A DNA stretch of 61,468 nt, filler included, from Basidiobolus ranarum (Eukaryota): the NCBI GenBank assembly GCA_040143965.1. It is 9 parts of 9 records of this genome, joined end to end, with 100 filler letters (N's around TTAATTAATTAA, not from the genome) between each part and the next. Parts side by side here need not be neighbours in the genome. Positions count along the whole stretch, not along the records: positions 54,745 to 61,468 come from JASJQH010001260.1; 8 more parts are not named here. One strand, written 5' to 3'. How positions within the stretch are numbered: position 1 is the first letter of the stretch; each line of letters opens with the position of its first letter. Positions 3,575 through 61,468 of this stretch are shown piece by piece. Made by a program: the position numbers and the translations under genes. The notes beneath the pieces are model-generated. The model saw only the letters and a list, made by a program, of their open reading frames with translations. It was not told where the DNA came from and made no database searches.

Positions 3575-3598
3575 CTAACCTAACCCTAACCCTAACCC
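3575..3598 (+). repeat. Interstitial telomeric tract (CCCTAA)n
   Basis: CTAACC TAACCC TAACCC TAACCC read directly. Confidence 0.85.
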
Positions 3599-3911: not shown

Positions 3912-3929
3912 TTAGGGTTACGGTTAGGG
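3912..3929 (+). repeat. Interstitial telomeric tract (TTAGGG)n, inverted relative to 3575-3598
   Basis: TTAGGG TTACGG TTAGGG read directly. Confidence 0.75.
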
Positions 3930-6758: not shown

Positions 6759-6858
6759 NNNNNNNNNNNNNNNNNNNNNNNNNNNNNNNNNNNNNNNNNN
6801 NNTTAATTAATTAANNNNNNNNNNNNNNNNNNNNNNNNNNNNNNNNNNNNNNNNNNNN
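6759..6858. other. Artificial contig spacer N44-TTAATTAATTAA-N44 (also at 13609-13708, 20453-20552, 27297-27396, 34140-34239, 40982-41081, 47818-47917, 54645-54744)
   Basis: Identical 100-nt linker with stops in all six frames occurs eight times, separating contigs of decreasing length. Confidence 0.99.
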
Positions 6859-17400: not shown

Positions 17401-17751
17401 TGTTGAAATTAGATAAATAGCAACTCATTTTTAGTAGCTAGTTTAGTCATATTCTGATTATGTAGTACTGAATTCTGTCATTCCAAAATGTGGGTTTATA
17501 GCTCTATTTGATAAAAATATCAATCAGATCACTTTGACCAACTTTCACTATTTTCTCAAAACTTCTCCAAATCACCTCAATCTTTCACCCATGCTTTGTG
17601 GGCATGTTTGTTATGAACAAAGCATGTTCATTAGGTCAATTACATACTAAACTATAAATAAGACATATTCAATTCAGTAAAATTTAAGTGTCTAATTCAC
17701 AAGTTCCAATCTTGTCCACTGCACTTCCAAATCCCCTAAACACTTTTATCA
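17401..17751 (+). repeat. Family A LTR (about 350 bp, TG...CA)
   Basis: Starts TGTTGAAATTAG and ends CACTTTTATCA; followed by the degenerate PBS GGCTATGAACCCTG; similar to 43048, 43625 and 58304. Confidence 0.88.
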
Positions 17752-20452
17752 GGCTATGAACCCTGAGCTAGCTGTTAAAGGAATGTGTACCTGTACTTTT
17801 ACTAATATTTTGGCAACCACAGAGCTATTAGATGGTGAAGACTTTCACCTTTGGAAGTTCAAGACACATATGGTGCTAGAAGACAAGAACCAGTGGGGAT
17901 TTGTTACAGTAGAAGAAACAGAGCTAAAGGGACCACCATAAGCTATCCTTGCCTTACAGAAGAAGCAGAGGAAAGCACTCTCTGAACTTTGTCTACAGCT
18001 CAGAGACTTTCAAATTGAGGTATATACAATTGGCCAAAAATGTCCAAAATGCTTGAGAAACACTTGGAGACTGTGAGAGATTAAATGTCTGGATAATAGG
18101 CTATATTGTAGGTAAAAAATACTCTCAATTCCGATGATTTCTGATGATTCAATGCTTAACTATACAATTCTGATAAAAACTATGCCGGATCAGCTCTCAT
18201 CCATTGGAGCACCTCTAAATGAAGATGACCTAGTTATGACTCTACTTTAGAGCCTTCCAGTTGAGGGTGGAAATATCTTAATTGCCTTAGAATCAAGGTC
18301 AGAGCCTTTAATGATGGATGTGTTAGTGCTAGGCTTTTTAACAGGGAATTAAGAAGACCTAATTCTCAGCAAAATAATGGAGAACAGGCATTTTTTGGAG
18401 CTGTAAAGCATCCCACAGGCTTCAATAATGGTGCCCCAAGTAGGAAAGCCATTATCTGCAAGTATTGCAAGAAACCATGCCATTTAATCACAGATTGCAG
18501 AAAAAAATATATGCCTGAAAGCTAAAATTGGAGAAAGCAAAATAAGTAAGCACCGAGACAGATCATCTATTTGTGTTAGCCATATTGTTTGTCACTCAAG
18601 AAGACTCAGAAATGTTGTACATTGATTCAGAGGCTTCCCAGCATATATCTAACAAGAAAGAATGGTTTACCAGCTTAAAACCCATACAAACAAGAAAAAT
18701 CTACTTTGGTGATGACCATTCACTTGATGCAGTTGGTAAGGGCACAGTTGTGCTCAATTTAGACCAAAATTGAGCTACACCATCTGCAAAATTGGATTAA
18801 TTACTCTAAGTACCAAATCTAGCCAAAAATCTACTCTCAGTAAGCTAAGCAACAACTCAAGAACTATATTCAGTGTTCTGCAAGGCCGGATGCACTATTG
18901 CAGATCACAATAATACCACATTAGCAATTGGGATAAAAACTCAAAACTAAGACAAGCAAGAAATCAACAAGTTGCATTCCATGAATGCAAACTTGGCCAA
19001 AACAGGTTAAATAAGTGGTCAAACACAGCATAGAAGATTAGGCCATATTGGGGAACAAACACTGACCCAAATGATACATACTCAGCTTGTTTTAGGCTAA
19101 GAAATAAAAATATCACTAAATTGGATGTATGTGAAGATTGCATATATGGAGAACATCACAGACTGCCATTTTCAAGCTCTGGAGAGATCAAATCTACTCA
19201 GAATTTTGCCCTGTTTCATTCTGACTGATATAAGCACATGAAAATGTCTCATTAGATGGGAAAAGGTACTTTCTGGCTTTTACTGATGACAAAACACAAC
19301 ATACTTTGGTATTCTTTTTCAAATTCAAATATGAAGCCTTAGCTACATTCAAGAAATTACAAAACAAAGGTAGAGAAAATCAGTACAAAAAATATGTGTA
19401 CCAAGGAGTGCTAATGGTGGATAAAAATGCTGCTCTAAAGACTTTACTTGGTTTTGTTCTGAACAAGGAATTAAGCAACAAACTACTGTACCTTATACTC
19501 CACAGCAAAATGGAGTTACAGAACATGCTAATAGACTCATAGTAGAGAAAGTAAGATCAATGTTACATGATCCAAATTTAGATTACTAGTATTGGCCTGA
19601 ATCTGTCACCACTGCAGTCTATATTAAAACAGATGCCCAACAAGAATACCATGAAATTCTACTCCATTTGAAACCCTATATGTATCAAAACCAACTCTGG
19701 ATCATCTCAAGATCTTTGGTTGCATGGCAAATTGCCTAATTCCAGCTTGAAAACACTTTAAATTGGAACCTAAAAGCAGAAACTGCATATCTGTTGCTTA
19801 CTGTGATGGATCTTCGTTCCTAAAAACTGTTTGATACCAAATATCAGAAGTTGATTAAGTGCAGAGATGGGATTTTTGCTAAAAAGCAAATTTTTCACTT
19901 TAGATCCTGGTTGTTGATCAAGAGAACACTGTCAGCACTATTCAGGAAGTATCTGACAGATTTCCAGCTGTATCTGAGCCCTATTCAACTGAAACTCAAG
20001 TCCCAATTACATTAGAGGATGATTCAAGACCCAGAAGATCATCCAAAATAAGAAATAAGCCAGAAAACTGGTGGAACTCTTCCAATGATGATGTATAAGC
20101 TTATGCAGTATTTTTTTACCAGCCACAGCTTTAGATCAAGCTCTGGAATGTCCAGAGTCAAAGTTATGGGAAAAAGCAATGTCTGATGAGTTTTCTTCAC
20201 TTCGGGACAATAAAATGTGGATTTTAAGTCCTCTACAACCCAAGAGAAAGCCAATAGGTTGCAAATGGGTCTACAACATCAAAAACTAAGCTGATGGAAT
20301 TATAGAAAGGTACAAAGCAAGATTAGTTGCAAATGGTAGATCCCGGACTCTAGGAGTTGATTTCAAGGAAACTTGTACTCCAGTAGCTAAGTTTAGCTCC
20401 ATTAGATCCATCCTGGTACTCTCAGCTTACCATAAGCATGATTTAAATTAAA
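17401..20452 (+). mobile_element. Degenerate Ty1/copia, family A, copy 2 (5' LTR, PBS, gag, PR, IN, RT start; cut by contig end)
   Basis: LLDGEDFHLWKFK, CKYCKKPCHLITDC knuckle, YIDSEASQHIS, PYTPQQNGVTE, KPIGCKWVY..ERYKARLVANG. Confidence 0.93.
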
Positions 20453-21856
20453 NNNNNNNNNNNNNNNNNNNNNNNNNNNNNNNNNNNNNNNNNNNNTTAA
20501 TTAATTAANNNNNNNNNNNNNNNNNNNNNNNNNNNNNNNNNNNNNNNNNNNNTTTAACATTCTCTTATTGAACAAAGTAGAATACGCAATAAGGTTTAGC
20601 AGGTTTCTTAGAAGGACATTCATAAGGAAAATATAGATTTGATTTAGCAGAATGTATTGTTGAATCTGATTGATCAACACTGTTATTGCTTCAACTTGGT
20701 GGATAGCCGAGATACCATGATCCAATAGAATAAACTCTTCATATTAAAACCCAGAGAAGAAGTACTCCTGTGGATATAAAAAAAGAAATTAAGCATAAAT
20801 CAACGTCAAGAAGAATTGAATAAACAATTGTGGAATTTGCTTACTATTTTGATATCTATATACGTAGATCTTGTTCTATGTCCAATAGAAGATGATTGAA
20901 GAGAAGCACTAATATTAACTTTGATTTGTTGAGCATTAATAGGTAAAAAAAACTGGTCAATAGCAAGTGGTGGATAGAAAAAGAAACTGATCGATCACTT
21001 CGATACTGACCGAAAGCCGATCCAAAATCTCGGCTGAATCGTCAGTATACTTAAACTGCCAACATAGATAGCGTTGCCAAGCTTAAGGTAACATCTACAG
21101 AGCGATCCTTCATCAAGAAAAGAAAAAGCTAACATCATTTAGAGAACAAAGTATTTAGCCCAGTTAGGAATGAGCTAGATACATATTGGGAAGTCAATAG
21201 GTTAAACTCGCCTTAAGAAGTAATATGTTTTCGACAAATCATAGATACGCCCTAGATAACCTTCGTACATATGACAAGTGAACGTTTAGATCAAAAAGAT
21301 CTGTACGCCGCTTCAAATGTACTAGTTTGTGCGGTAAGAGAATCTGGGTATGCTCTGCTCTTAGGTGTCACTTTATTAGGATAACCTTCCAAAATTTCTA
21401 TGTGACTCTTCACTACTATTTGGTTGACATTCAAATCTACGCCAATCCAACAGCTTAATTCGTACATTTGATTTCAACTGAATATCAACACCTCTATATT
21501 GCTATGAACGGGAGAAGGAGCTTATTAGCAAACACCAACCACGAGTAGACGGAAATCCTCAACAACAAACACTAGTTGATGATCTAAATCGGTTAAAGAA
21601 AATACACTATTACGGAGCTAACAAATATAGATTGGTAGAAGCTGAATGGACTACCGAAATAGTTGATTTCACGATGGAGAGACAAATAATGGGGATATTA
21701 CCAAAATAAAAAATCAGATCGCCAACGCCGATAGATACAACTAATAGAGATTTGTAAGAGACACATCTGGAAAAAACCACCTCTCCTTCAAGGTTATAAA
21801 AGTAGAATGAATTGGCTTGGTTTCAACATCATCAGTTGATATCAGCTTTCTTAACA

Positions 21857-26563: not shown

Positions 26564-27396
26564 CTTGATTCGAAGAAAATATGAATGAAGTAAACATTGT
26601 TGCCGCTCGGTCTTTAGCTATTTAAGTACATTTATTGTATCCATCCTCGTTCTTTATATTAGGGTTCCTGGTGAAGTCTATAGACAAATATTCCATCACA
26701 CTCTTTGTTCTTACTAGCACTTTTGAAGGTTCTTTCTTTAGACCATCCATTAGGATACTTATCTTTACATTGCTCATTAGCTCAAGTTGTACATTTTCTG
26801 AACAAACAATACTCATTTGCCTTAATCTCAGTGGGGATTCTATTAGAATAGTATTTGTATTCAACTAATAAATTCGACGCACTGTGCTTGCATTTAATCA
26901 ATGATAAATATATTGCTCGGGGATATTTATTAATGATGAGATTGTCTATTCCGTTATGAGGATCATAAAACTAACGGAAATCATCATTCGATGATGGGTT
27001 AAGCAGTAGAACTCGCATGATTACAGAATAATTTCATCATGCAATGGTTGTAAGTTACTCCATTTAGATGGTTTGTTTGGTGGAATGAGATTGACTTAGA
27101 GATTCTATTACTGATTACCAACCTCCCCAATCAAAATTCATTTTATTGTTTATCACATATTGATTTGAAAGATAGTTATTATTCTCCCCCAAATTCTTCC
27201 CCTTTGGAAAAATCCGATGATTTTAATGCTCTGGACTCTACTAATAATTGTTCAAAAAAATTATCGTAGTATTGGTATCCTGATTGATTCTTGAGGNNNN
27301 NNNNNNNNNNNNNNNNNNNNNNNNNNNNNNNNNNNNNNNNTTAATTAATTAANNNNNNNNNNNNNNNNNNNNNNNNNNNNNNNNNNNNNNNNNNNN

Positions 27397-27840
27397 CATT
27401 GTTAGAGGCTTTCCTGTTTTATTCGGCACCTTTAGCCCACCAAGGTATTTTTGTATATCCCGATGTAGATTGATTTTACCTCGATCCACAAGTTGCATAA
27501 CGGCCAGAGCAGTAAATGATTTCGTCACCGAGCCAATTTGAAAAGCTGTGTTTTTATCCACGGGGATTTGCCTCTCCCTATCTGCATAGCCATAACCTTT
27601 GCTTAAGATTACATTCCCATCTCGTACAACCACAAAGTTAGAGCCGACAACGTTAAATTTCTTCATCGTACGCGCGAATATGGTGTCAGCAAATGCTTCT
27701 ACCTCTTTGGCATCTTGTGGCCCTCCTAAGCTGACCTTTTCTGCCGATATCTCTGGGCCTTTCGAGGCTGTGCAAGGGATGATAAAGGATGTGGATAGTA
27801 ATAAAGCTGCAAAGCTGGTGTAGTAAACAATTTCTTTCAT
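27397..27840 (-). CDS. Secreted beta-lactamase-family (class C/AmpH-like) serine hydrolase, N-terminal part (cut by contig end)
   Basis: Signal-peptide-like start, FVVVRDG..KGYGYAD, FQIGSVTKSFTA (catalytic SxxK), LVDRGKINLHRDIQKYL. Confidence 0.92.
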
Positions 27841-29634
27841 TCTAACCCTGTCTTTTCCTTTAGCGTGTTGACTGGGTGTAGATTTTAAGTATTTTGAAGA
27901 AAATAGTACGAGCGTAGATTGCCTTTTATCCTAACTTTTCTTAGCCCGCAGTCATGTGATATGACATGTATATGTAGTAGTAAGATGATCACTTAAATAT
28001 ATTTTATCAGCCAAAAATACTTGAAATCGCCTCCTTTGTTTATTGAGTAATTTCACTATTTCGTATTCTTGGCTTAGATAATTTCTTTGACTCATCAATG
28101 ATGTAGCAAATATCTGAATCTATTGAGCATATTCGTCGTTCATTGTTTTCTTCTATTTCAAGGTGTATTTGAGATCTCTTATAATGTATAGATTCTGTCT
28201 TTCTGCTTACAAGTTTGGGAAACCTTCGGATATACCTTTGGATACAATTCCTTGAGTAAACGATTCGAACCAGTCCCATACGCGCTTTCTGAAGGTACCT
28301 GAGACCATGGAGGTAGGCTTGGAGATTAGGATTTGGGATTTTCCAGTTACCATTGTTAGAAATTCACCACTTTTTTGACGTGGATTATCATGTGAAAGAA
28401 ATTTAAGTTTTATATTAGCTTTTCAATAGAGTGCACTTCTATTTTCCTTTAGCAATCGTACGTCCCTTACTTTCTCATTTGAGCTTGGTTTTGGGATTGA
28501 TATTCACACGAACCCTTACTCGAACCCTCACACGAGCCCAGGATTGAACCCTTGGCATCATGTAAGGATTAAATTTAATTATTCCAAAACCAATCCTCCT
28601 GTATTAGACCTAATCACCGATTGCAATAGTATTCCCTCGAGTGATTATTCTGTATTTAAAAAAAGTGTTTCATCGGAAAAGAGGGACTGAAAAGAGAGAC
28701 TGAAATACCATTGTTGTCATTAGTGAATTTACCGCATGCATCTACCATTCAATATATGTCGAGTTAGGATTAGATGTTGAAATAAATCCGGATTTATAGT
28801 ACTACCAACATAGTATTCCCAGTAGAGTAAGCCTAATAGAGTACTCCTAATATCAAAATCATTTGATTATGGAAACTCCATTAATGTAAGATTCTGGTAA
28901 ATCTATTTGGTGGATGGTGGATTACATTTAGTGAATACTTGGCGTAGGATTGAAATTTCTTGGCAAATATGTAGAAATTTATTTGATCATCATTTATTAC
29001 CGCATCTATCAATATCTACATCTATCATGGGAAGTGAGCCTTGTATACAATTTTGGACAAACAAAAGTTCCCATGTTTTGTACGTGTTGGTATATTCCCC
29101 CTGAAGAGAGTCCACTTGAATATATCTAATTTCATATATAGCCAAATGATGGATTACATCGTCTCGCGTTATTACAATTACTAAGAACCATTTGTTGCTG
29201 GCGTATATGCAACACCCGTGTTTACATTACAATGATAAAGGATGGAAAAATCCAATATCAAACAAACCTCCTCCTGAAGAAGGAGCACTGCTAGATGACA
29301 TACCGAAGGCTTTGAGCCACATTACCATATGTACTGAAGCTTCGATTAGTTATAGTTTCTATAAAGCACTTTGTAGAGTCTATGGTAATTGTAAGTTGTA
29401 ACAATGTTGTAGGTGATACAGCAGCTATTTTTACACTGCTACAATCCTGCTGGGGAAAGGATTAACTTGCTGAATACCAGTGATTATACATTTGAAATAT
29501 AGGATATGACGGTAAACTTAACTAAACCTTACGCGCAGCATTGTTGGAATTCAAAAAACCCACTTATGTCACCGAGATTGTGTCTTGCATAGTCAGGTAA
29601 TTTATAGAAACTATTCCTATATATACGTAGATAT

Positions 29635-31475
29635 TGTTAAAGTATTTGGGAGCCTGTTGGAAGTGGTTTGGAGAATTAGGGAAATTGGTGTTTTTCACTT
29701 GTTGATTTATCGAGTAGAAAGTTGACATTTATAGTTTTGTCAAGATATAAGCAAACTAACGTGTAGAAAGTGCTAAGGAAGGTCCCAGGAACATGTGGGC
29801 AAAATTTGGGGCTTCTAGCACATGTTTGAAAAATCCAAACATTGGATAACTTCTGAGTTGGTAAAAATTTTTAAAGTAAACTCCAATTAAGAATAATAGG
29901 CTATATCTTAGTGAGATATAAGATAACTAAATACTAAGCTATATAAGACTCTGTAGATGTTTAGGAAATGCTATTTTCAACCATCTCCCTCAACTACATA
30001 GTCATATAAACCAATTCTAAGAATGGTCTAAATTTCTCAAATTACCACCTAGCTACTGGTTTGATTACTATATCTGCAATCATATATTTTGCAGATCAAT
30101 AATTAAATTCAATAAACTGATTTTCTATAGTCTCTCAAATAAAATGATGTATAGTACCTACATGATTGCTTCTATTATGAAATATGGGATTTCTAGCTAA
30201 TTTGATATAACTTTGATTGTCTTGAAATATTGTAGTTGGTTATTTTGAGCATAGTCCAGATCCATTACAAGTTTTCTTAATCATATTGCTTCTGTTGTTG
30301 CTTTATAGGCATTCTTGTATTCAGCTTCCATTGTTAAAGTGCCACAGTAGGTTATTTCTTTGAATTCCAAGACATAGTACTATTACAGCAAAGAGATAAG
30401 TATTCTTTTGTAGATCTCCTGCCTTTACTATCTCTTCCCCAATTTGCATCTTGTTAGATCAAATTTTGATCTAAAATATATATGTTTTAAACACAGATCC
30501 ATTGTACTTTTCAACTATCTGAAAATTAGCTTAACTACTATGACTTGGTCAGGCCCATAATTTTGAAGAAACTGGCACATGACTCCTGCAGAATGTACAA
30601 TATCTGGCCATGATCAACCATGATATACATATAACCAGAAGCTGTAGATTTATAAGGAGATTGCTGGGCTTTATTCAAGTTCAAGAACTACTGATTTGAG
30701 GCATTTTAAGTTAAGATTTTTCTTCATTGGGATAGATACTGGACTCCATTCTTCCATTTTCAGCTTCTTTTGTATATCTAAGATATATTTAGACTAGTTT
30801 AAAGTTATTGTTTTAGTAGTTCTATCTATCTCAACTTGGATTTCAAGATAGTACATCAGTTTACGAAGATCAGTAATTTAGAATTTGGGAGATAACCTGG
30901 ATTTGGTCTTCTCCAAAGTCTTCAAGTCATTGTTTGCTCTGATAAGGTCATCTACATATAAGGCTAATAAAACTGAGTTTGTCTTATCTGGCCTGAAGTA
31001 GATACTATAGTCAGTATTACTCTTTTGGAATTTGAGTGTTTCCATAACAGCATCTATGTTCCTATTCCAAGCTCTCAGAGATTGTTTTAAGCCATAGAGT
31101 GTTTTGTGAAGTCTGAACTTTTTTAGGGTTGTCTGGGTCCAAGAATCCATCTGGCTGGTCCATATAGATCTCCTCAGCAAGCTCACCATTCAAAAAGCAG
31201 TTTTAACATCCATTTGATATATAATAAACTGATATTTAGCTGAAATTGCCAAAATCAATCTGATTGAATTAAACTTTGCTACAGGAGCAAAAGTTTCTGT
31301 ATAATCTATTCCTAGTGTGTGGGAATAGCCTTTGGCAACTAATGTAGCCTTGTACCTTTCTATATTGCCATCAGAGTTATATTTAGCTTTAAACATCCAT
31401 TGGCAACCAATTGATTTTCTATCATCAGGTAAGTTGGTTAAAATCCAAGTTTGATTATCAATCAAAGCCCCAAGA
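29635..31475 (-). mobile_element. Degenerate Ty1/copia, family B: RT, RNase H, PPT and 3' LTR (LTR 29635-29982)
   Basis: [57 protein letters not shown]; purine tract GAGGGAGAT precedes the LTR on the minus strand; LTR matches 54013-54342. Confidence 0.92.
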
Positions 31476-31479
31476 TGCA

Positions 31480-34139
31480 TCCAGAAGCTCTTTCCGATTT
31501 CAGATATTTGCCAAGTATGATCGCAAAGACCCGCTCATCATGATCTATCCATGTATGACTTTGAAAATTAGCGCCCCTCTGGAAATCGAAAATCTGTTGC
31601 CGTACGATTTCAACTACAATATCATCGACAGATCGGACGATGTTTCGATCTCTGGCTTTCTTGGAAGAGGGGATATTCGCTCGATGCATACCTTTCAATT
31701 GGGACAACTGTTACATTTGAATATAGAGATCGGAGATGCTGGGTTTGCATATAGTGAGTTTGTGGTTATTGGCTCTAATGACCTAGTGCAAAATCCGATT
31801 CAAGACACCATTTCACTAGCCAACCCTGAGGGAACTAAGCTTAGTCTTTGTATCAATTACTTCGAAATTCCAGAGTCTGGGGGAGCCTGCCGGGTTTCGA
31901 TATATAGTCCCCTCTTAATAATCAACAAGACTGGACTAGACATTTATTTAAGAACAAATAACGATGAAGTGAACGCTATATATGCTGGTAGCGAGGACGC
32001 ACCATTGAATAATAGGCCTCTTCCGTATATGTACTCACCACATAACTCTCAGCCTAGAAATAAGGCCTCCATCAAAGTATCGGACTCCGAGTGGAGTAAG
32101 CCAATGAACTTCGAGGCCATAGGGAGTGAAACATCCGCCATTATACCAATGTCTGAACGCTCAGACGAAATTCATCTAGGCATGAGTGTAGATCAAGGCA
32201 GAGGAAAATACCGCCTTACAAGAGTCATAACCTTTACTCCCCGGTTTATTCTCAAAAACAACATGAGAGAAAAGATTCTTCTGAGAGAACCTGGCTCTGT
32301 TGTCAGTATTCCTCTGAAGTCTAAACACAAAGCGCCACTACATTTTGTGCGCCAAGGAGATGAGAAGCGGTTGATGATTAATTTCCCCGAAACCAATAAG
32401 GAATGGTCAGCTCCGTTTAACATTCAAGATGTTGGGAAAACTTTTATTAAAATACGCAAGTCTGGAATTCGACGTGATCTAGTCAGAGTAGACATTCATC
32501 TCGAAGGCCCTACCATTTTCATTCTTTTCAAAAAAGAAGAGGGAAAATGGCCATTCCGAATCGAAAACGAATCGGGTGTCACGGTCCTGCTCTCTCAACC
32601 AATTGCTCAGCCCCGCGAGGCATCTTCTACCCAGCCTAGCTCTGCGTTTGAAAAAACAAAACAGATCCGATACAAATTGAGTTCCGGAGACACGATGGCA
32701 TACTCCTGGGACTATCCTGCCAACAAGCAGAAATCCCTGGTGCTTCATGTCAATGGGTATGAGAGAGAGATTACGCTATGTGAAATCGGCCCTCTTATGC
32801 CTTTGAATTATAAAACTATCGATGGAGCCGGTATTATGGCGATAGATATAGTAGCTGAGGGACCTATAATAGTGGTGCACTTGTCTAAATATGATCAGTC
32901 AGAGAGTATCTACAAGCCTGCAACTTCGAGCTCGACGAACAATTCACTTCAGGATACCGATTTTGAAATCATTGATATGGATTCAGTAACTACTTTCTCT
33001 CTGAAAATTAAATTAGAGGGGATCGGGATATCGTTCGTAAATAGACACGTCCAGGAAATAATTTACTCAACTTTCCGTGGAATCGAACTGAACTACAATG
33101 ACTCCACATTCCAAACATCAATCAATTTCATGATCAAGTGGCTCCAGATAGACAATCAACTCTATGGAGGATTGAGACCGATCATTCTATACCCTACACT
33201 AAACTCGAAGCACGCTAAAGAAGTGGAAATTAAGCCTACTTTCCGAGCAGCAGTTGTGAAGGCCAAGGATACATCTCACGGTGTAGAGTGGTACAAATAT
33301 ATTACTGTTTGGCTACAGGAGGCTTCCCTTGATATTGACGAGGATTTCTTAATGACTCTGCTGGATTTCAGCAAATTCAATGTACCAGGATGGGGATTCG
33401 AAAACCAAGGGTAGTGTAGTCGTCTTTCGTTTATTTTATACATTTGTGAGGCTTTATTGAGATCTTATCCAGGTATATCGGTGATGAGAGCATGAACATT
33501 CCAGAGCCTGCTTTGACGGAAGGCGATACTCAGCTCTACTTCGAAGTGATTCATATTCAGCCTTTAAAAATCAACCTTTCTTTTTCCAGAACGGAAGTCA
33601 TCAATCAAGGAAAAAATACGTATCCTTTTACATATATTTTGTTCGAAGATATATCCACTCCTCTTATTCTTAACTCTTGCATCAAGTCCTCGATCCTATA
33701 ACCCATTAATGTACATAGTCAACGTACTCACAATGACTATTGGAAACATCAATGTATTCTCTCTGCAATATTTGACTTTGAAGATATTCTATTAACATTC
33801 TTTCTTAGGCTGCACCAATCAAGCTAAACGCACTAGTGATGCATAACGTGATGGTTACCTATCCTGTATTGATTGATCGCTTTAGTAAGCATTACTCGCA
33901 AGAAGTTTTCTATCAGGTTGCTTTTCATTTTCCTTCAACCACACCAATTGCACACTATGATCCTTTACTTACTGAAATGATGTTCTAGGTCCATAAAGTT
34001 GTAGGGTCTGCGGATTTCTTGGGGAATCCAGTGAAATTATTTAATACTGTGAGCTCTGGAGTTATTGATTTCTTTTACGAGCCTTATCAATGATTTATCA
34101 TGAACGATAGAGCACAAGATGTAGGAATTGGGCTCGCTA
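31480..34139 (+). pseudogene. VPS13: VPS13 (VAB/SHR-binding to C-terminal region), 5'-truncated, with an in-frame TGA; exons ~31480-33410, 33473-33619, 33687-33753, 33809-33916, 33989 to contig end
   Basis: [86 protein letters not shown]; four GT-AG introns keep frame; TGA at 34091-34093. Confidence 0.85.
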
Positions 34140-34240
34140 NNNNNNNNNNNNNNNNNNNNNNNNNNNNNNNNNNNNNNNNNNNNTTAATTAATTAANNNNN
34201 NNNNNNNNNNNNNNNNNNNNNNNNNNNNNNNNNNNNNNNC

Positions 34241-37222: not shown

Positions 37223-38269
37223 TCAATACGAGAGGTCAAACATTGAGGTAGTATGGCGACGTTTCTTCAGAGGTGGCTGCTTTAGTTGAAAATCGGAGGA
37301 GTTTGAACGTAGCAAGCTGTTCCATGGACCACTTCCTGATTCCTTATCAGTGTATTCTTCCGAGTGGTGGAATGATTTTGAGCGAGGTTTTGCTTGAGCA
37401 CGGTACTTTTTGGCATTCATTTTAGTTGTATCTAAAGGCATACGGCAATTAGATAAGTTCAACTCTTCCGTAATGGTAGGTCTCTTTTTGTTGACAAAGG
37501 CGTTGTTAAGCGATTGCTGCTGAAGAAGGTCAATTTGAGTCGATAAATCTAACCCAAGTGATCCAAGTCCCGAGTAATCTGAGCTTTCAAATATATCTGA
37601 TACAGATAGGGTATGGATTTCTGTTGAATCAGTGGATGATGAAGCAGTCTCCTGAGGAAATGTGGCCATATTGAGGATATCTTGATTTTTTAAAGCGGTT
37701 GTATCACACGTGCTTAGTAGAGTTAAGGAATCATGAGAGGAAGTACTGGAAACCTCATTAAAATCAGAGCATAAGTAAGCAGCAGTGTTTGTGCTTAGAA
37801 GATCGCCCGATTCTATAAACGAATCTAGATCGAAAGTGTTGCTAGGGTTTTTCTGAAGATCAAACGAAGCGGTATTTGGAGATATCAAATACGAGTATTC
37901 AGGGTCAAGTAAATATGATGCGGAGGATCTTTGATCATAAAATGAGCCCGAGTGGGATAGAGTTAGCTTGGTAGCTTCAATAGGGTAAGCGGAATCAGAA
38001 GAATGATTCCCTTCATGGTTTTCTTTCTTTAGTTTTTGGCGGCGGTTTTGAAACCAAATTTGAACCGCACGAGGATGCATGTCAAGCTCCTCGGCTAATT
38101 TCACACGAATTTCGGTCTTTGGTTTGGTGGTTTGGTCAAAAACCTCCATAAGCCTATTGACTTGCCGGGCATTGAGACGGTTTCGTCGTTTGATTTCCTT
38201 CATATCGTAAGCCTTGTCATGTTCCGAATCCGTATCATATGATTTTTGAGAGTCTTCGAGTTTATTCAT
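37223..38269 (-). CDS. Homeodomain transcription factor, intronless
   Basis: KRRNRLNARQVNRLMEVF...KLAEELDMHPRAVQIWFQNRRQK near the N-terminus; Ser-rich acidic tail; NLS-like PLKKRR. Confidence 0.93.
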   Translation of the reverse strand: MNKLEDSQKSYDTDSEHDKAYDMKEIKRRNRLNARQVNRLMEVFDQTTKPKTEIRVKLAEELDMHPRAVQIWFQNRRQKLKKENHEGNHSSDSAYPIEATKLTLSHSGSFYDQRSSASYLLDPEYSYLISPNTASFDLQKNPSNTFDLDSFIESGDLLSTNTAAYLCSDFNEVSSTSSHDSLTLLSTCDTTALKNQDILNMATFPQETASSSTDSTEIHTLSVSDIFESSDYSGLGSLGLDLSTQIDLLQQQSLNNAFVNKKRPTITEELNLSNCRMPLDTTKMNAKKYRAQAKPRSKSFHHSEEYTDKESGSGPWNSLLRSNSSDFQLKQPPLKKRRHTTSMFDLSY

Positions 38270-41081
38270 TGGGGAAATAGACTATTGGTCGCACCTAGGA
38301 GTATCAGTCTTTGAAAAGTTGCTCGAGAGGGAAGTTGGAATTGAATAAATAGAAATCCAAACTGATATTCGATGAGAGGAAACCCTCAGCTTTTATAGAG
38401 ACAAAGATGACAACAAATAGCCATTATGATTCAGAATGGTTGGAGTGATTTTAAATCCAGGGGGTACAACGACCGGATCCCTTAATAAGTATTTTAGGTA
38501 ACATGAGCTGACAATTTTAGTGATTTTTTTGCTCTGCATGAGAACACTACTCAAGAAAACCGGATTCAAAACACAATGACGGAGTTGAAATGTTGATAAG
38601 TGCAGTGGTAGGTAACGCAGGTGTTCAATCCATTTGAATCATTAAGGATATAGAGAAGCCAGCAACGACGAAGTGCTTATGGAGAGGTCGACCTTTTCGC
38701 TAGTTTGAATGTCACTTTTGTTTTTCAGAGTTTCATTGCTTCTTAAACCGCGCTTGACTCGGGTAAGTCAAAAGCTCACTCCTATTGGATGCGGTCGCAG
38801 AAGTGAGTCACGATTGAATCGAAGTCAAAATCTTGTCTGTGCACGATTTTTTAGGTAAGCTGTGACGTTAACACTTGCATTACACTATGTACCATTGCAA
38901 CGGGGATGTCGTCATCACGCATGTCTTAGTTCAAAGACATCTAGACTTACAGTCGTAAATCGCTAGACATCAGCAGCATCGCTGATCTTTTCTTTTCATC
39001 ATTTTACTCCACAACCCAAAAAAAGTTTTCCAACTTCAATTCGGGTATTCTAGGATGTTCTGAGTTATATCTAACTAATTTAGGTCTACTATATATAGAA
39101 CTCGATTGGTGACGCTTAGGAGTCATTCTTTCAATTGGTTCACTTGTTGGCCAGATTTGTAGATGCTGTGACTATGTCCACTTTTCAGCAATTGCGACAA
39201 CCACGTTTATTATTGCTACGTTGACAATTATCCTATTCTGTTTGTACCTGACTTTTATGACCAACAGTGAGTGACTAAATTCTTTGAGCATACATCCGGC
39301 AACAATAGAATGATGAAATGTCAACTGCATGGCTTGAGTGATTTTATTGATGCTACCACTAGTATATTCCTCCCAATATATCCTACTATCAACCACCAGG
39401 CCACTGCTCACCAATTCAAATTTTGCCTTACAGCTGTGATCTCTATAGTTAGTAATGGTTCCACATCCACTGTTGATTTAACACTTTTTTACTATTTGCT
39501 ATATATGTACTCCATAATATCTGAGCTATTTCTGTGGGTTTAGAGTTAGTAAGACTAGATTGCTTGTTACTCATGATTGGCCATCCCATTCATTTCGTTT
39601 TCTAGAAAAAACTGTTCAACTTCTGTGTTTTGATGCATATATATATGTCGAATCTTTGAGCTTTCCTGCAAAGCCATTAAATATCATCTTTTCATATCCA
39701 TGACGAATTTCTAGTTTTCACTACTTCACTAAATGGACTATTCATACTAGTGGGAAAATGTTGACTTACTTAACTATAAACTCCTTACAGTCAATACTGA
39801 ATAAGACAAACAAAGGTATTATTCAAAGCTGATGAATAAGAAGCAGTGGTGAGAGGTGGGCATACTGTGATAAATTGAGAACTTTGATTTCATTGGAATA
39901 GCAGTATCAGCGATTTTTACTTTTACCGTATTCACTTTGGTGATTATAGTAGAGAAAATACTCAGAGTTAAAGATATTCGAGAAATCTATGGTAGTAATA
40001 GGATTAGTAGGTGTGGTAACATTTTGGGTACTTCTTGCATATATAATTAGTGCGAATGATTCTTACCCCATAAACTCTAATTGTTCATTACTGATATCAC
40101 CTTGACATTTAGTCAGGGGAATCACTAACAAACTATAAATTTGGTCACGTTTACGCCTAGCTGTCACCTTAGTTTCACAGTAGAAAACACACTAATACAC
40201 TAATAAAAATGACTATCAACTTAGTTTAAGGTGATTCCATTAATCTTGGCAATATTATACACACTTATATCCAGTGCAGTGAGCAAATTAGTTTCGAGCA
40301 TAACATACTTCAATACTAAATTATTCAATAGCAGCCATATTTCTAAATTCCACAATATATAAGAGTAAGGGAAAAAGTAGCTACTTGTACAAATTACTAA
40401 ATTTCAAATCTCCAATACTGCACTATTGAATATATAACCATCAGGCCCAACATATAATTTAGTATTCCTGTATATGCCAGATTCTTTGTTTTCAGTTTCA
40501 AAGCTCCCACTTGTATGAGTACAAAAATTTAGTTCCACAAACCTTTTCTCCAAATCTCAATGATTTTGGTGCCACCTCATTCCATTCAATCATCATATAT
40601 GCTATCTGTCAAGCTGTTAAATATAACCCATTGAATAGAGCTCATTTTGGTGCCTATATTTGCAGCTCTAAGGGGTACAGAACATGGCACCTTCAAGTTT
40701 TATTTCAGATACAGACATTTTTATTTACCAGCATTTAGTAAATTATGAAGATGTTAAGGGAAAAAATACTTCAAAAGAAACTTTTAGCACCTTGATGACT
40801 GAAAAGCAGCATCCTCTTTATATATATGAAGTTAAAATAGTTGTCAATGTGTAAAATATTAATGTATTGTACTTCTGAAATTTTGGAAAACTCTTTTCTG
40901 ACATTTATTGATTGTGAGGTATTTACTTGTTGCTAGTCAGGAAGGTTTATATGGAACATGTAATGACTATGGCTAAAGCTANNNNNNNNNNNNNNNNNNN
41001 NNNNNNNNNNNNNNNNNNNNNNNNNTTAATTAATTAANNNNNNNNNNNNNNNNNNNNNNNNNNNNNNNNNNNNNNNNNNNN

Positions 41082-47795: not shown

Positions 47796-48248
47796 CAGCA
47801 GTTCAATTTGCAGGATANNNNNNNNNNNNNNNNNNNNNNNNNNNNNNNNNNNNNNNNNNNNTTAATTAATTAANNNNNNNNNNNNNNNNNNNNNNNNNNN
47901 NNNNNNNNNNNNNNNNNTTAGATGGTAGCTCAGTGCAACAGGAACTAATAACCTCAGATTGTTCCGCGGGGCTCAAAACACTGAACCTTCAATCCAAATC
48001 GGCACCTCTGAATTTGATACAATACACTACGATTAGTAGCATTCTAGATAATGAGTGTACTACAGAGAATGGGGTGATTCGACTCACGAAATATCCTGCC
48101 TAGTGATCAGGAAAGCATATATCTTAGATTTGAATCACTGCGCAAATATCCAAATTTGGATGTCCACTCATTAGCTAGATGCGATGGATTCGTATAAATA
48201 TGTGGATGATTCCCAACTAAACCATCAAATTCCCTATTCCTCTCAAGT

Positions 48249-54644: not shown

Positions 54645-54744
54645 NNNNNNNNNNNNNNNNNNNNNNNNNNNNNNNNNNNNNNNNNNNNTTAATTAATTAA
54701 NNNNNNNNNNNNNNNNNNNNNNNNNNNNNNNNNNNNNNNNNNNN

Positions 54745-54895
54745 TAATGAGAAATGGTAAAAGTGATCTAATTGATATTTTTATCAATTAGAGCAATAAA
54801 CACACATTTTTGAATGGCAAAATTGAGTGTCAAATAATCAGAAAATGAACAAACCAACTACTAAGTCATAAGTTGCTATTACCCTAATTTCAACA
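54745..54895 (-). repeat. Family A LTR, 5' part (cut by contig end)
   Basis: Reverse complement begins TGTTGAAATTAGGGTAATAGCAACT. Confidence 0.85.
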
Positions 54896-57249
54896 ATGTA
54901 TTTGGGCCAATATCTGACAATCCATTTACTTACTAAGGATAAAAATGTGTGCCAATATCTTACACTGATGTTAATATTTTTCATACTAGAAGTAAAGTTA
55001 TAGCTGTTGGAAGATCTTGACATAATGTGGGTAGACTGTGTATATTAGAGGCATTGTATTATCTAGTTTTAGTTACTTTTCTGCTACAAGAATATGGTGA
55101 CCATTGCAGTAGACCATTGAGTTATTTGTTTGAATTATTCACAAGTTTGTATAGTAAAATATAATTGGAAAGTGGGAGTAATAAGAAAGACTTGTTTTAT
55201 AGATATAGGGATATTCCTATCTAGAATATAGGGGCTATTGATACATTGCTTTCTGTATTTTGCATATGTATCATAACTAAAGTTACCTAAGATGTCAAAT
55301 GAATATTAATTTTCTAGCAATTGCATCAATATCTATTCAATGAAATCCTATAAATCTGCAGATCTTTTTGCTCTCAAGTAAATGTAAATGTTACATTATT
55401 TGATTAAGAAGCAAAACAAGCAATGGGCATGAGTGGGGCCTTAATGTTAGGATGTCTTCTTGTAGACTTGAACTTAATGTATTCTGCATTTACTGTAAGC
55501 AATGACTAGAATCATGGATGGATTACCTTGCCCTAAGGTTTTGTTTTCCTCAGTCAAACCAAACAGCAGTGTATAGGATAAACTTGAGCAATCCTTCTAT
55601 ATCTGGAATTTTGGCAGACATACATTATGAATGCCAGTACTCTAACTTGAGTATTATCAAAGGAGCAGTTTACCAAGTTGGTAAACTTGATGGGACTGGG
55701 AAGTTCTTGGTGATAATAATTAGGGAGAGAATTGGAATGAACTTATTTAATTCTTTAGTTAGTTATCTTGATTAGTATCACTAATCAGCCTATAATTATT
55801 ATTTGCTGAGTATTTGTACTCAATTAAATTAGAAGCCCTATGAGTGCAATATTAAGAATGATTGATTAATATATCTTGCCAAAAGACAAGTTAAAATATT
55901 AAATCTCAACCACAGTCTGTTTGTGATATATTGGTTGGTCATCAGCATATGAGCCATCTACACATCTGATCCAGGTATTTGGTGGATAAAGCACTTCCCC
56001 ATGCTTTTGAATTAAACAGGTCAATACACAAGGAAATTCTGTCTTGGTATCACCTTTCTTTTAACACTATTGCTCCTTCATCTGTCATTGAAAGATGTGA
56101 AACAGCAATAAAATCCTTAACATATTGGAGTGTATAAAAAAGTCACCCAATAATCAGCAAGAACAAGCACAGGCCAGCTTGCAACTAGCTTATCAATATC
56201 TTTGCAAGGTATATGAAAGCTTGGATATCATAAATTTTATCAATGAAGTGATACATGGAATTACTGCCAGACTTATGATTGACTTGAGAGCATTGCAGGA
56301 GTGCATGACATCTCAGTGTTCAATACAGCAGGAATCTATTCAGAGCCTGCTCCCACCACTAGTGTACTATGGCCAATGAAACAGTAATGGTTGCATGTCA
56401 AGTCACAAGCTCTAGCAGATCACTTTTACAAATTATGAGGATCATTAAGTTGTTGGATGGCAGGAAAGGCCCTAAATAATAATAGAACTGCAATGGCAGA
56501 AGTATTACTAATAATTGTTTGTGTTTTAACAGAGGAGTTAGCAGAGTTACAGCTTGGGGCAGGAGTAAGATGCAAAAAAAGCTGGTGACTGTGCATCTGT
56601 AAGAAAGCTTGCTGCTGTAAGCTTCCCTTGGAGCTGCTGGAGATCATGAAACTGAATGACAAACTCTTCAAGCCTACATACAATCAAACAATCCTTTAGC
56701 ATAAAGAATCCATTTTTCATTTCCAACAATCAAGTTGTAGATATTGGAGTATGTCCAAACAGTGAGCTTTGAGCTTTGGCTTTATCAAGATCAAATAAGG
56801 ATCTAACTGATTCAAGCTAAAATAATAAGCAAAATTACTGTCTTGTCATGCTTGTAGCAGATCTGATGCCTATTTTTAGGTAAATATCTATTTGAAGAAA
56901 TGGAGGTGTCTACTACTTTTCCTTGTCTCTAGATCTGAACATGCTATTAAGAAGGAAACAGAACTAATGCAAGGACTCACTCTCCAACCTGAAGTGCTTT
57001 AGCATCCAAAAAGTGCTGTTGACAAAAATGACATGATGGACCAAGCACTGGCAGTAGTTTCTCTCATATTGCAGCTGTAGTCACAAAAAATCCACATAAT
57101 AATAGATGCTTGAACTTTAAATAAGTAAGACAAAGAAATCATAGTCATTTTGATATTCAATTGGCCTATGCTACAACATACTTTTTGGAGAACCATCCAT
57201 TCTCAAAGCCTGCACAGGACAAAATATAAATTTAATCTGACAAGAGGCA

Positions 57250-57560
57250 GAATGCATGTTGGTTACATAAAGGCTATGGAGAATTGAAACTGAATGAACA
57301 CTCTTGTTAATGATGACTAGCTTTGGTTGCCTAAGTTGAGGAGGAATGTAGAAACACTAATCAAGGCTTGCCACAGATGGTAGATATATTGGGGCCAGAT
57401 CCTGAGACATGCAGAATTAATCCTGTTGGGGCCAGTAGGACCATTCAAATAGTTTGGTATTGACTACGTTTAAAAAGAACCCACACCCAGAGTAGAGAAA
57501 CAATGTATTCTAGTTGCTATTTTGCTAAAACTAAGTAGATTGCCAAAGTACTATTTGTTA
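57250..57560 (+). mobile_element. Decayed Ty3/gypsy integrase remnant
   Basis: LWLPKLRRNVETLIKACHR (HHCC zinc-finger region) followed by GPF..FGIDY (start of the core); CpG-depleted. Confidence 0.55.
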
Positions 57561-57734
57561 CCAATGAAGAAGACCAACAACTTTCAAAACATACACAGCT
57601 TTCATGAAGCTTTCATGCCTGGTTAAAGCTATACTCAACACAGGAGCTTACTCTACAGCCAAAACTAGCAAAACTTTTGCAAAAGCTCAAATCACAACAA
57701 CATACCAGGTATGCATGGGTGCACATTTGCAATG

Positions 57735-58070
57735 ATTAGGGGAAGTTTTGAAAAATAGTCCAAAACTGATAAATTAGTCTAGCTGCCATATTAATCACGT
57801 GGTGCAATAAAGATTTAAGTGTAAAACAATCAGAGCATGGTTAAACTAACTACTAATTAATGAATTTCTGTTTCATTAATGAAGACTTGACAACTGAACT
57901 TATTATTTTTTGTACTCTTTACTTGCATTTGTGCTCTCACCAACCAAACGTAGCATGTGCCAAATGCAGGGTTACAATATCAGCAATCATTTCTTGAATG
58001 GTTCAATGGATAAATGCAATTATATCATGCCTTATATGTGCTCTAAAAATGGTATAGACTTCAGAATATT
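57735..58070 (-). mobile_element. Decayed copia 3' end (RH terminus plus LTR fragment), family A-like
   Basis: Minus strand QEMIADIVT, followed by sequence similar to the family A LTR (TAGTAGTTAGTTTAACCATGCTCTGATT; CTATTTTTCAAAACTTCC). Confidence 0.6.
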
Positions 58071-58303
58071 TGTTGAAATTTGATTCATTGTAACTAGTGA
58101 TTTGGTAGTTTGTTGCTTTCATTGACAAACATAGCAGTTTGCTCACTTTTGAGCTTTTTGTTCAAACTTCTCTTGAAAATATCAACTTTCCATCAATACT
58201 TTACCAACATGTTTGCTATGGTCTAAGCAGATTCAAAGCTCTAACCCATACAAACATATAAATTGGACATGTTTAGTTCAGAAAGTATTCTCTGCCTGAA
58301 GAC

Positions 58304-59913
58304 TGTTGAAAATAGGTAAATAGCAACTCATAGTTTAGTAGTTAGTTTTTAACATTCTGATTATTTAGCACTCAATTCTGTCATTCAAAAATGTGTGTTT
58401 ATTGCCCTAATTGATACAAATAGCAATTGGATCAGTTTTACAACTTTCACTATTTCCTCAAAACCTCTGCAAATCATCTCATATTTTAACCCATGCTTAA
58501 CAGGCATGTTTGTTAAAATCTAAGCACATCTAATAGTCCCATCTCATAGTAATCTTTAAATAGGATATATTCAATTCAATAAAACTTCAGTGTCAAATTC
58601 ACCAATTCAAATCTTGTCTGTAACACTTCCAAGTGCCCTGAACACTTTAATCAGGTTATGAGCCCCAAGCTAGCTCTTAAAGGAATGTCTACCAGTACTA
58701 TTACCAATGTTTTTGCATGCACAGAGTAGTATAATGGTAAAAATATTCACCTTTGGAAGTTCAAGCTACAAATGGTGCTAGAAGACAAGCACCTATGGAG
58801 ACTTGTTAATGGCAAATAAATAGAGCCAATGGGACCATCAAAAGCTATCCTTGCCTTTCACAAGATGCAGAGGAAAGCACTCTCCACATTTTGTCTACAT
58901 CTCAGAGACTCCCAATTGAGGCACATACAATCAGCTAAAAATGAGCAAAATGCTTGGGAAACACTCAAGAGACTATGTTAGAGTAAAAGTCTGGCTAATA
59001 TGGTATCTCTTAGGCAAAAAATATTCTCAATGCGCAAGAATTCTGATAATTCCATATACATCAGATAGAAACTGTGGCAGATCAGCTCTCTACCATTGGG
59101 TTGCATCTAAATGAAGATGAATTAGTCATGACTCTACTAGGGAGCCTGCCAGATGAGTTTGGGAAACCCATCATTGGCCTGGATATATGATCAGAGCTAT
59201 TAGCAATGGAATATGTTGGTGCTAGGCTTTTAAATGAGGAATTAAGGAGATCTAATTCTCAGCAAAACTTTGCAGAACAGGTATCTTTTGGAGCTGCAAA
59301 ACATCTAACAGGCCTCAATAATGGTCCCCCTGACAAGAAATCAATCATCTGCAAGTATTGCCAGAAACCTGGCCATTTAATCAAAGATTGCTGAAAAAGA
59401 ATATTGGCCATAAGCTAAAATCAGAATACGTTAATCAACTAAGCACTGATAGGATTCATCAACATGTGTCTGCCCTATCAGTAACCACTAAAGAAGACTC
59501 ATAAATGTGATACATTGATTCAGGAGCTTCCCAGCATATGTCAAACAAGAATGATTGATTTTCCTGCCTAAAATTAACTCACACAAGAAAAGTCCACTCA
59601 GGTGATAACTACACACTAGATGCAGTTGGTAAAAGCACCTCTAAATGAAGAGGACTTAGTCATGACTCTACTACAGAGCCTGCCAGACAAGTTTGGTAAA
59701 TTCATAATTGGCCTAAAAGCAAGATCAGAGCCATCAATAATTAAATATGTTGATGTGAGGCTTTTGAATGAAGAATTAAGGAGATCTATCTGTAAACAAA
59801 ATAATGCAGAGTAGGCATTTTTTGGAGCTGTAAAATGTCCAACAGGCTTTGATAATGGCACACCTAACAGAAAATCAATCATCTGCAAGTATTGCAAGAC
59901 ACCAGGCTATTTA
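58304..59913 (+). mobile_element. Ty1/copia family A copy 4: 5' LTR 58304-58653, PBS, gag, PR, then a repeated gag end from about 59635
   Basis: TGTTG...TCA LTR, HLWKFKLQMVLEDKHLW, CKYCQKPGHLIKDC, IDSGASQHMS; NEEDLVMTLL..LPDKF appears a second time. Confidence 0.93.
58654..58665 (+). promoter_or_regulatory. Primer-binding site complementary to the anticodon arm of initiator tRNA-Met (half-tRNA priming)
   Basis: GGTTATGAGCCC directly after the LTR CA is the reverse complement of GGGCTCATAACC. Confidence 0.85.
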
Positions 59914-61047
59914 TAATTCCAGGCTTTCTTCACATTTAGTGGGGAGTATGATTTGTATGGGATGTATAGGTACTTATGAAATACTTTTAGATGTACATCT
60001 GTAGATATGTGATTATCAGTGGTTTTTGAAATGATTATGTCCATGAAGTCAAAGAGAAAGGTTGGACTACCTAATCCAGCTTAATAGTGTTGTTCTCCTC
60101 ATTGAAGTGTTGCATAAATGTACTTAGTTTGGTCATACCATGTTGCCAGATAAAGAAAATATCATCCAGATATGATTTGTAGATCTCTGGCCAGATGGGT
60201 GTTTTTTTCTTGATCCGGTCTTACAGAAAGTGCATGTAAAGGTTACATGAAGTGCCCATTGCTGTCCCTTCAATTTGCTCATATGTAAGACCTTCAAATT
60301 CAAAATAGGTATTATACATGATAATGCACAGACTTTCTGTTAAAGCTTCCAATATGTGTGGGAGATTTGTATAGTGTTTTCTAATATATGTGCTGACTTT
60401 GCTGACTCCTTTATTAGTTTTGATGTAGGTGTACAAGATTTGTACATTGGCTTTAACAGAGAGTTGTGTGTGTGCCATAGTTGTTGTTTCTTGGATTTTG
60501 ATTAATTCTGTGGAGTTATGTAATATAATAGGAAGCATGTTACAAATTGGTTGAAGCCAGTGGGAGTACCATATGGATATACCATTTGTTATCCAGCTTT
60601 AGGATGGTACTGTAGGTCTGCTTTTGATGGGTTGCTTATGTAATTTAGGTAAGAGGTAGAATGTGGGTAATCTCCATTCCATGAGTTTAGTGGTAATGAA
60701 TTTAGGCTCTTTGATTTTGAAGCTTTTTCTGTAATATCTTAGCAAATTGTGGATATTTTCAGTGATTTTGTCAAAGAGGCATATCTTTACAATATATGTG
60801 TTGGTATCCTGTAATTGACAAAGGACTTCATTAATGTACCGGCATTTGTCCATTATTGTTAGGCCTAGGTTTTCACCACTAGGTTAAATAATTACGTTTT
60901 TGCTTTTTATGAATTGTTTCAGATTAATCAATTCCAACACTTCATTATTATGTTTAATTGAAATTTTTATTGTATCCAACAAATTTATTACATTTGTTTC
61001 CAAGAATTATATGCCTTGTTCCAGTTGAGATGATCCAGTAATTAGTT
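59914..61047 (-). mobile_element. Penelope-like element (PLE) reverse transcriptase, degenerate and truncated at both ends
   Basis: Minus strand: NVII*PSGENLGLTIMDK (decayed DKNLG motif), PTFYLLPKLHK..SRPTV, YFEFEG..YEQIEGTAMGT, YLDDIFFIW (60161-60172), FMDIII..KYLYIPYKSYSP..VKKAW. Confidence 0.9.
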
Positions 61048-61063
61048 GGGTTAGGGTTAGGGT
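61048..61063 (+). repeat. Telomeric tract capping the PLE 5' truncation
   Basis: GGGTTAGGGTTAGGGT, a 16-nt perfect match preceded by TTAGTT. Confidence 0.8.
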
Positions 61064-61468
61064 GTTTTTTTCTGCGCTATCAGTAACCACTAAAAAAGAT
61101 TAACAAACATGGTACATTGCTTCAGGAGCTTCCCAGCATATGTCAAACAGGAAAAATTGGTTCTCCAGCTTAACACCAATTCAAACAAGGAAAGTCTACT
61201 TAGGTGATGACTACATACTAGATGCAGTTTGCAAAGGCCCAGTTGTACCTAATTTAGACCAAAGTTCAGAAATGCCATCTGCAACATTGGATGATGTACT
61301 CCATGTGCTAAATATAGCCATGAATCTACTCTCAGTAAGCCAAGCAACAACTCAAGGACTAAGTTTCATGGTCAGTAAGGCTGGATGCACTTTCACTGAT
61401 CAGAACAATAGCAATTTAGCTACAGGGATCAAAACTCAAAACTTGTGCAAGCTGGAAAGCAACAAATT
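61064..61468 (+). mobile_element. Family A copia resumes (protease region)
   Basis: SALSVTT..WYIASGASQHMSN..VYLGDD..LDDVLHVLNIAMNLLSVSQ; colinear with 59466-59635 and 18570-18970. Confidence 0.9.

Follow-up and report, generated by a model that had tools for sequence, protein, structure and literature searches.

Near the end of the window, by which we mean the whole 61,468-nt stretch of Basidiobolus ranarum DNA that was analyzed, a decayed fragment of a Penelope-like element (PLE) reverse transcriptase (RT) was found inside a copia copy, with a short telomere-type repeat capping its truncated 5' end. The fragment lies antisense to copia, copia bases are lost at the site, target duplication is absent, the RT appears closer to endonuclease-less PLEs than to other PLEs, and the same cap occurs in relatives. 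The locus looks like a fossil of chromosome-break repair. Our leading reading, held tentatively, is synthesis in place, in which a PLE RT would have been primed at a break in copia, a short repeat would have been added, and the ends would have been rejoined.

The window consists of nine pieces of about 6.75 kb with linkers between them. Features on separate pieces are not genomic neighbors, and the genuine context of the PLE locus is 54745-61468 only, with about 5 kb of real sequence to the left of the locus and 0.4 kb to the right. This last piece is decayed transposon sequence throughout, with 0 ORFs of at least 150 aa, and it also holds an inverted pair of 139-bp copia LTR-like segments (54757-54895 and 58304-58441, 85% identity). 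The linkers and the features of the locus are as follows.

6759-6858, 13609-13708, 20453-20552 and 27297-27396: linkers, N44-TTAATTAATTAA-N44
34140-34239, 40982-41081, 47818-47917 and 54645-54744: linkers, N44-TTAATTAATTAA-N44
58302-59638, plus strand: copia copy X, with an LTR fragment, gag, the zinc knuckle and the start of the protease (BLAST, translation)
59634-59913, plus strand: left part of copia copy Y, from the gag C-terminus to the zinc knuckle, ..CKYCKTPGYL (BLAST, alignment)
59914-61045, minus strand: decayed Penelope-like RT fragment (translation, motifs, tblastn of 14 database PLEs)
60863-60877, minus strand: GENLG, a decayed DKNLG, in the PLE frame
60635-60652, minus strand: LPKLHK, in the PLE frame
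60587-60598, minus strand: SWIT, in the PLE frame
60254-60268, minus strand: GTAMG, in the PLE frame
60161-60172, minus strand: YLDD, in the PLE frame
61048-61063, plus strand: telomere-type repeat GGGTTAGGGTTAGGGT, adjoining the PLE 5' truncation, with its C-rich strand on the PLE sense strand
61064-61070, no strand assigned: a G and a T-run at the junction of repeat and copia (alignment with copia copies)
61071-61468 (end of the window), plus strand: right part of copia copy Y, protease onward, WYIASGASQHM... (BLAST)

Translation gave a single minus-strand frame from 61045 to 60074, which reads, in order, LITGSSQLEQG, PSGENLGLTIMD, YLLPKLHKQP, SWIT, EGTAMGTS and SYLDDIFFIW. In-frame stops occur at 61009, 60886, 60601 and 60223 (TAA) and at 60073 (TAG), and a single frameshift lies near 60075, after which reading resumes to HKYLYIPYKSYSPLNVKKAW / ...YLYIPYKSYSPLNVKKAW. 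With five stops and no frameshift over about 1 kb (60071-61045), the decay was mostly by substitution. The fragment begins about 50 residues ahead of the DK(N) motif, takes in the RT motifs and ends where the thumb starts (YLYIP..KKAW), and its 3' boundary is uncertain by about 5 nt. All signatures of the PLE class, DK(G/N), LPKxHK, GTAMG and YxDD, were present, and the best 150 homologues aligned over the RT. The 14 database PLEs used in tblastn covered 61036-59931 and no other place in the window, and a Pfam search of six ORF pieces and the read-through gave no meaningful family. The initial annotation had read a minus-strand PLE RT from the decayed DKNLG, LPKLHK, GTAMG and YLDD, with a frame extending to ...ITGSSQLEQG and telomeric repeat thereafter, and both translation and homologues agree with it. 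An addition to that description is that the fragment is 3'-truncated as well, ending inside the RT thumb, before the position where the endonuclease (EN) would lie. At the 5' truncation, relatives carry 60-165 more ORF residues.

Two other sources of the stops were considered, and neither was supported. Since all five are TAA or TAG, an alternative genetic code with TAA and TAG as sense was weighed and rejected; the host ORFs had clear bounds when read in the standard code, and reading in code 6 brought no coherent gain. The polarized differences between copia copies X and Y showed no one-directional C-to-T excess of the kind that a RIP-like process would leave.

The sequence CACCCTAACCCTAACCCAA stands on the minus strand directly ahead of the frame start LITGSSQLEQG at 61045 and abuts the 5' truncation. 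Read on the plus strand, GGGTTAGGGTTAGGGT is 16 nt long and in perfect TTAGGG register. It is preceded by a degenerate TTAGTT at 61042-61047, and the first repeat unit is imperfect (TTAG-TTGGG), the start of the repeat reading TTAGTTGGG. The 12-mer TTAGGGTTAGGG, with at most one mismatch, occurred 5 times in the window in comparison with 0.14 expected occurrences, and 5 was reached in 0 of 100 shuffles. A perfect 16-nt tract exactly at the junction is not chance. The exact hexamers stand where three paralogous copia copies, taken as a stand-in for the empty site, are continuous, as in interstitial telomeric sequences; the telomeric repeat sits on a truncated 5' end with its C-rich strand on the sense strand, as in terminal PLEs. 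The G and T-run at 61064-61070 may be copia's own TTTGTGT changed by substitutions, and the point at which copia resumes may thus lie anywhere in 61064-61071.

The PLE fragment is not demonstrably at a chromosome end, and parts of a single copia copy lie to its left and right. The left part of Y (59634-59914) matched two copia copies on the third piece by BLAST, at 14386-14665 and 18208-18486, and the right part matched 14755-15150, 18593-18973 and 59469-59636. The alignment showed that about 85-89 bp of copia are absent at the PLE site and are present, in continuous sequence, in three other copies. No flanking direct repeat or target duplication was found at the insertion, and the element's 3' end is missing, in contrast to a canonical insertion by an EN-bearing (EN+) PLE. 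These BLAST and alignment data match what the initial annotation had described, namely that copia stops at the zinc knuckle (about 59913) and resumes further along without target duplication. It had missed a second junction, between X and Y, which lies 280 bp upstream of the PLE at 59634-59640, with a few bases overlapping. Copy X matched 13789-14912, 17601-18745 and 17399-17698, and its end corresponds to position 14912 in the copy on the third piece; Y restarts at a point corresponding to 14386, which is 527 bp back in gag. X was the nearest copy to both Y left (79.6%) and Y right (82.7%), with fewer transversions, and other pairs were 70-78% identical; the segments compared were short (274 and 168 bp). 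Since X is nearest to both halves of Y, the 527-bp overlap may be a local duplication, or else a template switch, on what is a small margin of identity.

The kind of PLE was investigated by a homologue scan of 1.84 billion representatives, in which 6357 matches passed E<=1e-3 and 33 of them also passed E<=1e-30; the top match was 40% identical. A near-length search for closer sister copies returned just 4 proteins, 32-34% identical and all of the DKG type. When a GIY-YIG profile built from the scan matches was applied to 164 database proteins, 21 matched and 143 did not, the latter including all of the best 55. The GIY-less proteins end about 175-250 residues past the end of the query, and many of them stop just past the NLxxxLVRAK linker, which precedes the endonuclease in EN+ elements. 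Among the best 80 of 523 confirmed metagenome loci, 31 encode GIY-YIG downstream of the RT, and 20 have at least 700 nt downstream and no GIY-YIG.

The alignment showed that the window copy shares DKNLG, to which its GENLG aligned, and HSWIT with the GIY-less set. The variant DKN[LMIV]G was present in 106 of the 143 GIY-less proteins and 10 of the 20 EN-minus loci and in only 1 of 51 EN+ sequences, 48 of which carry DKG. Against profiles that were both built without it, the window copy scored 268.1 bits for the EN-less kind and 207.5 bits for the EN+ kind. In a likelihood tree of 73 rows, which are without named Athena and Coprina references, the EN+ label needed 2 changes, and the 34-row EN+ group (SH-aLRT 91) left the window copy outside, on an EN-less backbone of low resolution near relatives P0016, P0018, P0017 and P0023; placing the window copy with the EN+ group was not rejected by the AU test (p 0.169). 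This tree replaced a first FastTree of 161 rows, in which the EN+ label was scattered (15 changes) because many proteins had C-termini of uncertain content. These data support the view that the window PLE is probably more like the endonuclease-less, telomere-associated PLEs than like those with GIY-YIG. Judged by its relatives at 30-40% identity, the window element would itself have been without EN.

Four metagenome loci (L017, L020, L023 and L037) hold PLEs with about 400 residues before the RT and no C-terminal GIY-YIG detected. This group is nested in the EN+ cluster and scored higher on the EN+ profile, and it may represent secondary loss or an N-terminal endonuclease missed by the profile.

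Among retroelements, endonuclease-deficient PLEs stand closest to telomerase, and they are thought to use any free 3' end. Coprina and Athena are the endonuclease-deficient terminal PLEs reportedly described by Gladyshev and Arkhipova in 2007, and, to our knowledge, documented endonuclease-deficient copies sit at chromosome ends. According to passages of PMC8557442, reverse-complement repeats and hammerhead motifs mediate the attachment of such elements to G-rich overhangs, and DKG is the canonical PLE form. Their priming can take place at double-strand breaks as well as at deprotected telomeres, whereupon the truncated 5' end gains telomeric repeats, as stated in the relevant part of PMC3846280. 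In the sections of a 2026 paper that deal with Coprina, its ORFs are oriented toward the centromere, and a DKN motif is reported for Coprina-1_Alen (PMC13159263).

Telomeric repeats beside EN-less relatives were found on metagenome contigs in two separate lineages. In L012, (CCCTAAA)n / (ACCCTAA)n lies 37 nt past the ORF stop. L038 and L042 contain head-to-tail arrays that are 85-91% identical, with homology ending at (CTAACC)n about 200 nt past the stop. In L032 (1-909), one copy breaks off within its ORF and carries a (CTAACC)4 cap whose C-rich strand lies on the sense strand; the cap adjoins sequence found at 2553 in the 99.5% identical sister L034, within the ORF (739-2868). The cap structure of L032 is that of the window fragment, in the same polarity. 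The initial annotation had likened the polarity, with a 5' cap and a C-rich sense strand, to that of terminal PLEs, and this accords with L032 and with what is stated of Coprina in PMC13159263. The relatives' repeat tracts are short (17-25 nt), comparable to the 16 nt of the window, and where they stand between elements the next element begins at once. Across the best 80 loci, 11 telomere-type tracts were C-rich and 0 were G-rich on the sense strand, a bias that is weaker than it looks, the convincing cases being only L012, L032 and L038; the other tracts were 11-17 nt long with mixed units, several of them inside ORFs or EN+ loci. Because the same anatomy is present in endonuclease-less relatives, a probable link of the window fragment to terminal, endonuclease-deficient PLEs is supported. 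The fragment also suggests a terminal PLE family, present or past, in this genome.

Hammerhead-like cores of the form CTGATGAG..CGAAAC were seen by eye near the ends of relatives, and conserved ones were located as follows.

L032 1239, L038 411 and L042 3805: conserved hammerhead-like cores, GATACCTGATGAGTATAC....GTATACGAAAC, by eye

Rfam gave no hammerhead in 12 relatives' loci at the gathering score and none in 5 loci at E<=1, and an Rfam scan of the window gave tRNA alone, with no hammerhead. The look-alike clusters of relative P0018 have few labelled members, mostly Rotifera; we regard this as no more than a lead. For rotifers, a passage of PMC7943196 reports the use of TGTGGG, and a search of the window for a tract of the TGTGGG type found none.

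The window fragment was compared with known systems. It shares with Coprina and Athena the PLE-type RT, the DKN-type motif (reported for a Coprina element in PMC13159263), nearest relatives without GIY-YIG, and an ORF that points away from a telomeric repeat placed on the truncated 5' end. It differs from them in that it is interstitial in copia, not demonstrably at a chromosome end, and in that it is without its 3' end, hence without visible reverse-complement repeats or hammerhead motif. Canonical EN+ PLEs (Penelope/Poseidon, Neptune and Nematis) have a homologous RT with LPKxHK, GTAMG and YxDD, whereas they differ in their DKG in place of DKN and in having GIY-YIG, target duplications and terminal repeats, and no tie to telomeric repeats.

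The absence of target duplication, the loss of target bases and the missing 3' end of the element are hallmarks of endonuclease-independent insertion. Such insertion was reportedly described for LINE-1 by Morrish et al. in 2002, and capture of retrotransposon cDNA at breaks is said to have been described in 1996 by Teng and by Moore and Haber. The likeness to these cases lies in the absent target duplication, the target deletion and the truncation of the element including its 3' end; the window locus differs in its class of element and in the telomeric repeat, which in those cases is not known to be added afterwards. In mammals, short telomeric tracts are inserted at repaired breaks, and the primate and rodent interstitial telomeric sequences treated in the relevant sections of PMC2246262 likewise combine a short exact TTAGGG tract with lost target bases and no duplication. 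At some of the rodent loci in that paper a reverse-transcribed RNA fragment accompanies the tract. The co-inserted fragment there is telomerase RNA (PMC2246262, same sections), in contrast to the 1.13 kb of retroelement RT gene at the window locus, where the repeat would extend a cDNA and not a broken chromosomal end.

From this anatomy we infer synthesis at the break itself, and likewise the source of the repeat. An old copia copy would have suffered a double-strand break just past the gag zinc knuckle, and the RT of an endonuclease-deficient, terminal-type PLE would have started from the plus-strand 3' end left of the break (about 59913) as its primer. PLE RNA would have been copied from an internal start in the thumb region, and the cDNA, being plus strand, would give an antisense PLE, with an early stop of synthesis about 50 residues ahead of DK(N). 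The new 3' end would then have gained 16-23 nt of TTAGGG repeat, either from telomerase or by a jump of the RT to a 3'-terminal (CCCUAA)n tract on another PLE RNA. This end would have been joined to the other side of the break, with the loss of about 85-89 bp of copia and without formation of a new chromosome end, and the whole locus would then have decayed neutrally. The strands are arranged accordingly in the sequence: the antisense PLE runs on from the left copia without interruption in the 5' to 3' direction, and the G-rich repeat stands at the 3' end of the presumed cDNA on the same strand.

The sequence does not separate synthesis in place from the capture or copying of an existing telomeric junction of PLE and repeat. 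Such a capture, which we consider unlikely but the most serious of the rivals, would mean that a PLE was added, 5'-truncated and telomerase-capped at a real chromosome end, and that the junction fragment later became filler in a copia break. Terminal PLE arrays have this polarity and this cap, as in L032 and in the Coprina sections of PMC13159263; truncation at both ends would fit a random DNA fragment; and the capture of telomeric fragments at breaks is one of the two routes proposed for interstitial telomeric repeats in the corresponding part of PMC2246262. However, the donor would have had to break merely 16-23 nt into the repeat tract, and both a longer telomere and the 3' end of a following element are absent from the captured fragment; in relatives the tracts of 17-25 nt between elements are directly followed by another element. 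The initial annotation had proposed that a telomere-healed piece was captured at an internal break; its link to a terminal EN-less PLE, the 5' cap and the polarity stand, whereas capture equals synthesis in place in the structure that it predicts. Synthesis in place is slightly preferred because the donor would need a break within 16-23 nt of repeat, and short tracts are the natural product of addition. Both junctions are A/T-rich and decayed, so microhomology could not be scored.

The imperfect first unit, TTAG-TTGGG, is a point against the preferred reading, not being the clean in-register extension expected of telomerase. If the repeat came instead from an RT jump to the telomere-like 3' tail of a further PLE RNA, this jump would correspond to the initial step in forming head-to-tail arrays such as those of the relatives. 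The junction between X and Y, 280 bp away, hints at a more complex rearrangement than a single simple break.

Such a rearrangement could be replication-based, with serial template switches from copia 14912 to 14386, on to the junction of PLE and repeat, and back to copia 14755. This would account for four junctions in 1.5 kb (X|Y, Y|PLE, PLE|repeat and repeat|Y), and X and Y are mutual nearest copies (79.6% and 82.7% in comparison with 70-78%), which would fit one local duplication in the same event. However, the identity margin is small over segments of 274 and 168 bp, X and Y are possibly sister copies joined by an unrelated event, and a telomeric PLE donor would still be required; we regard this route as improbable.

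An assembly chimera, with subtelomeric PLE reads misjoined into a repeated copia, is very improbable: the surroundings are indeed repeats, but both flanks belong to the same copia copy in the same orientation and lie 85-89 bp apart, which would be a rare outcome of a misjoin, and the insert is as decayed as its flanks. Least credible of all, and close to negligible, is ordinary insertion by the GIY-YIG nuclease of an EN-bearing PLE with the 16-nt repeat as chance or element sequence. The AU test and the similar-length named proteins closest to it, which are DKG-type animal PLEs, would permit it. Against it, target duplication is absent, target bases and the 3' end of the element have been lost, and chance falls far short of explaining the repeat, which is followed by copia and not by PLE. 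Relatives carry 60-165 more ORF residues at the position of the repeat, and both signature and profile favor the EN-less kind.

The preferred synthesis in place may be viewed more broadly as aborted chromosome healing, a proposal that we put forward with reserve: an internal break would have primed a terminal-type PLE RT, the cDNA end would have been partly made into a telomere, and the two halves would have been rejoined. The phenomenon was already foreseen in the literature for this class of PLEs. An endonuclease-less PLE at an internal break, with its cap and both sides of the break kept, would be a natural example of the predicted use at internal breaks, and one in which a retroelement RT, telomeric repeat addition and end joining are linked in one repair event. 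If this is true, endonuclease-less PLEs would serve, in an organism with TTAGGG telomeres, as material for patching internal breaks as well as for additions to telomeres. Because it is one decayed locus without genome-wide support, the locus is a supporting case and not a new principle. A limited full-text search found no description of an interstitial telomere-capped PLE fragment, which does not imply that none exists; its matches were PMC2246262 and an unrelated catfish satellite-DNA study only.

Short TTAGGG tracts also mark junctions at a second place in the window. A 314-bp segment there lies between (CCCTAA)n on the left (3568-3598) and TTAGGGTTACGGTTAGGG on the right (3912-3931), and these repeats face outward, like those of a small linear DNA capped at both ends. 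The segment gave no match in the remainder of the window or in the relatives' loci, and it starts 130 bp past the stop of an intronless isochorismatase-family ORF (2760-3440). This ORF and a beta-lactamase ORF (27349-27930) are long, intronless and of bacterial-looking families, which may reflect gene transfer or contamination, and beside them the window holds clearly eukaryotic ORFs, which encode VPS13 (31393-33414), a homeodomain protein (37223-38281) and a 7tm_3-RGS fusion (10851-12305).
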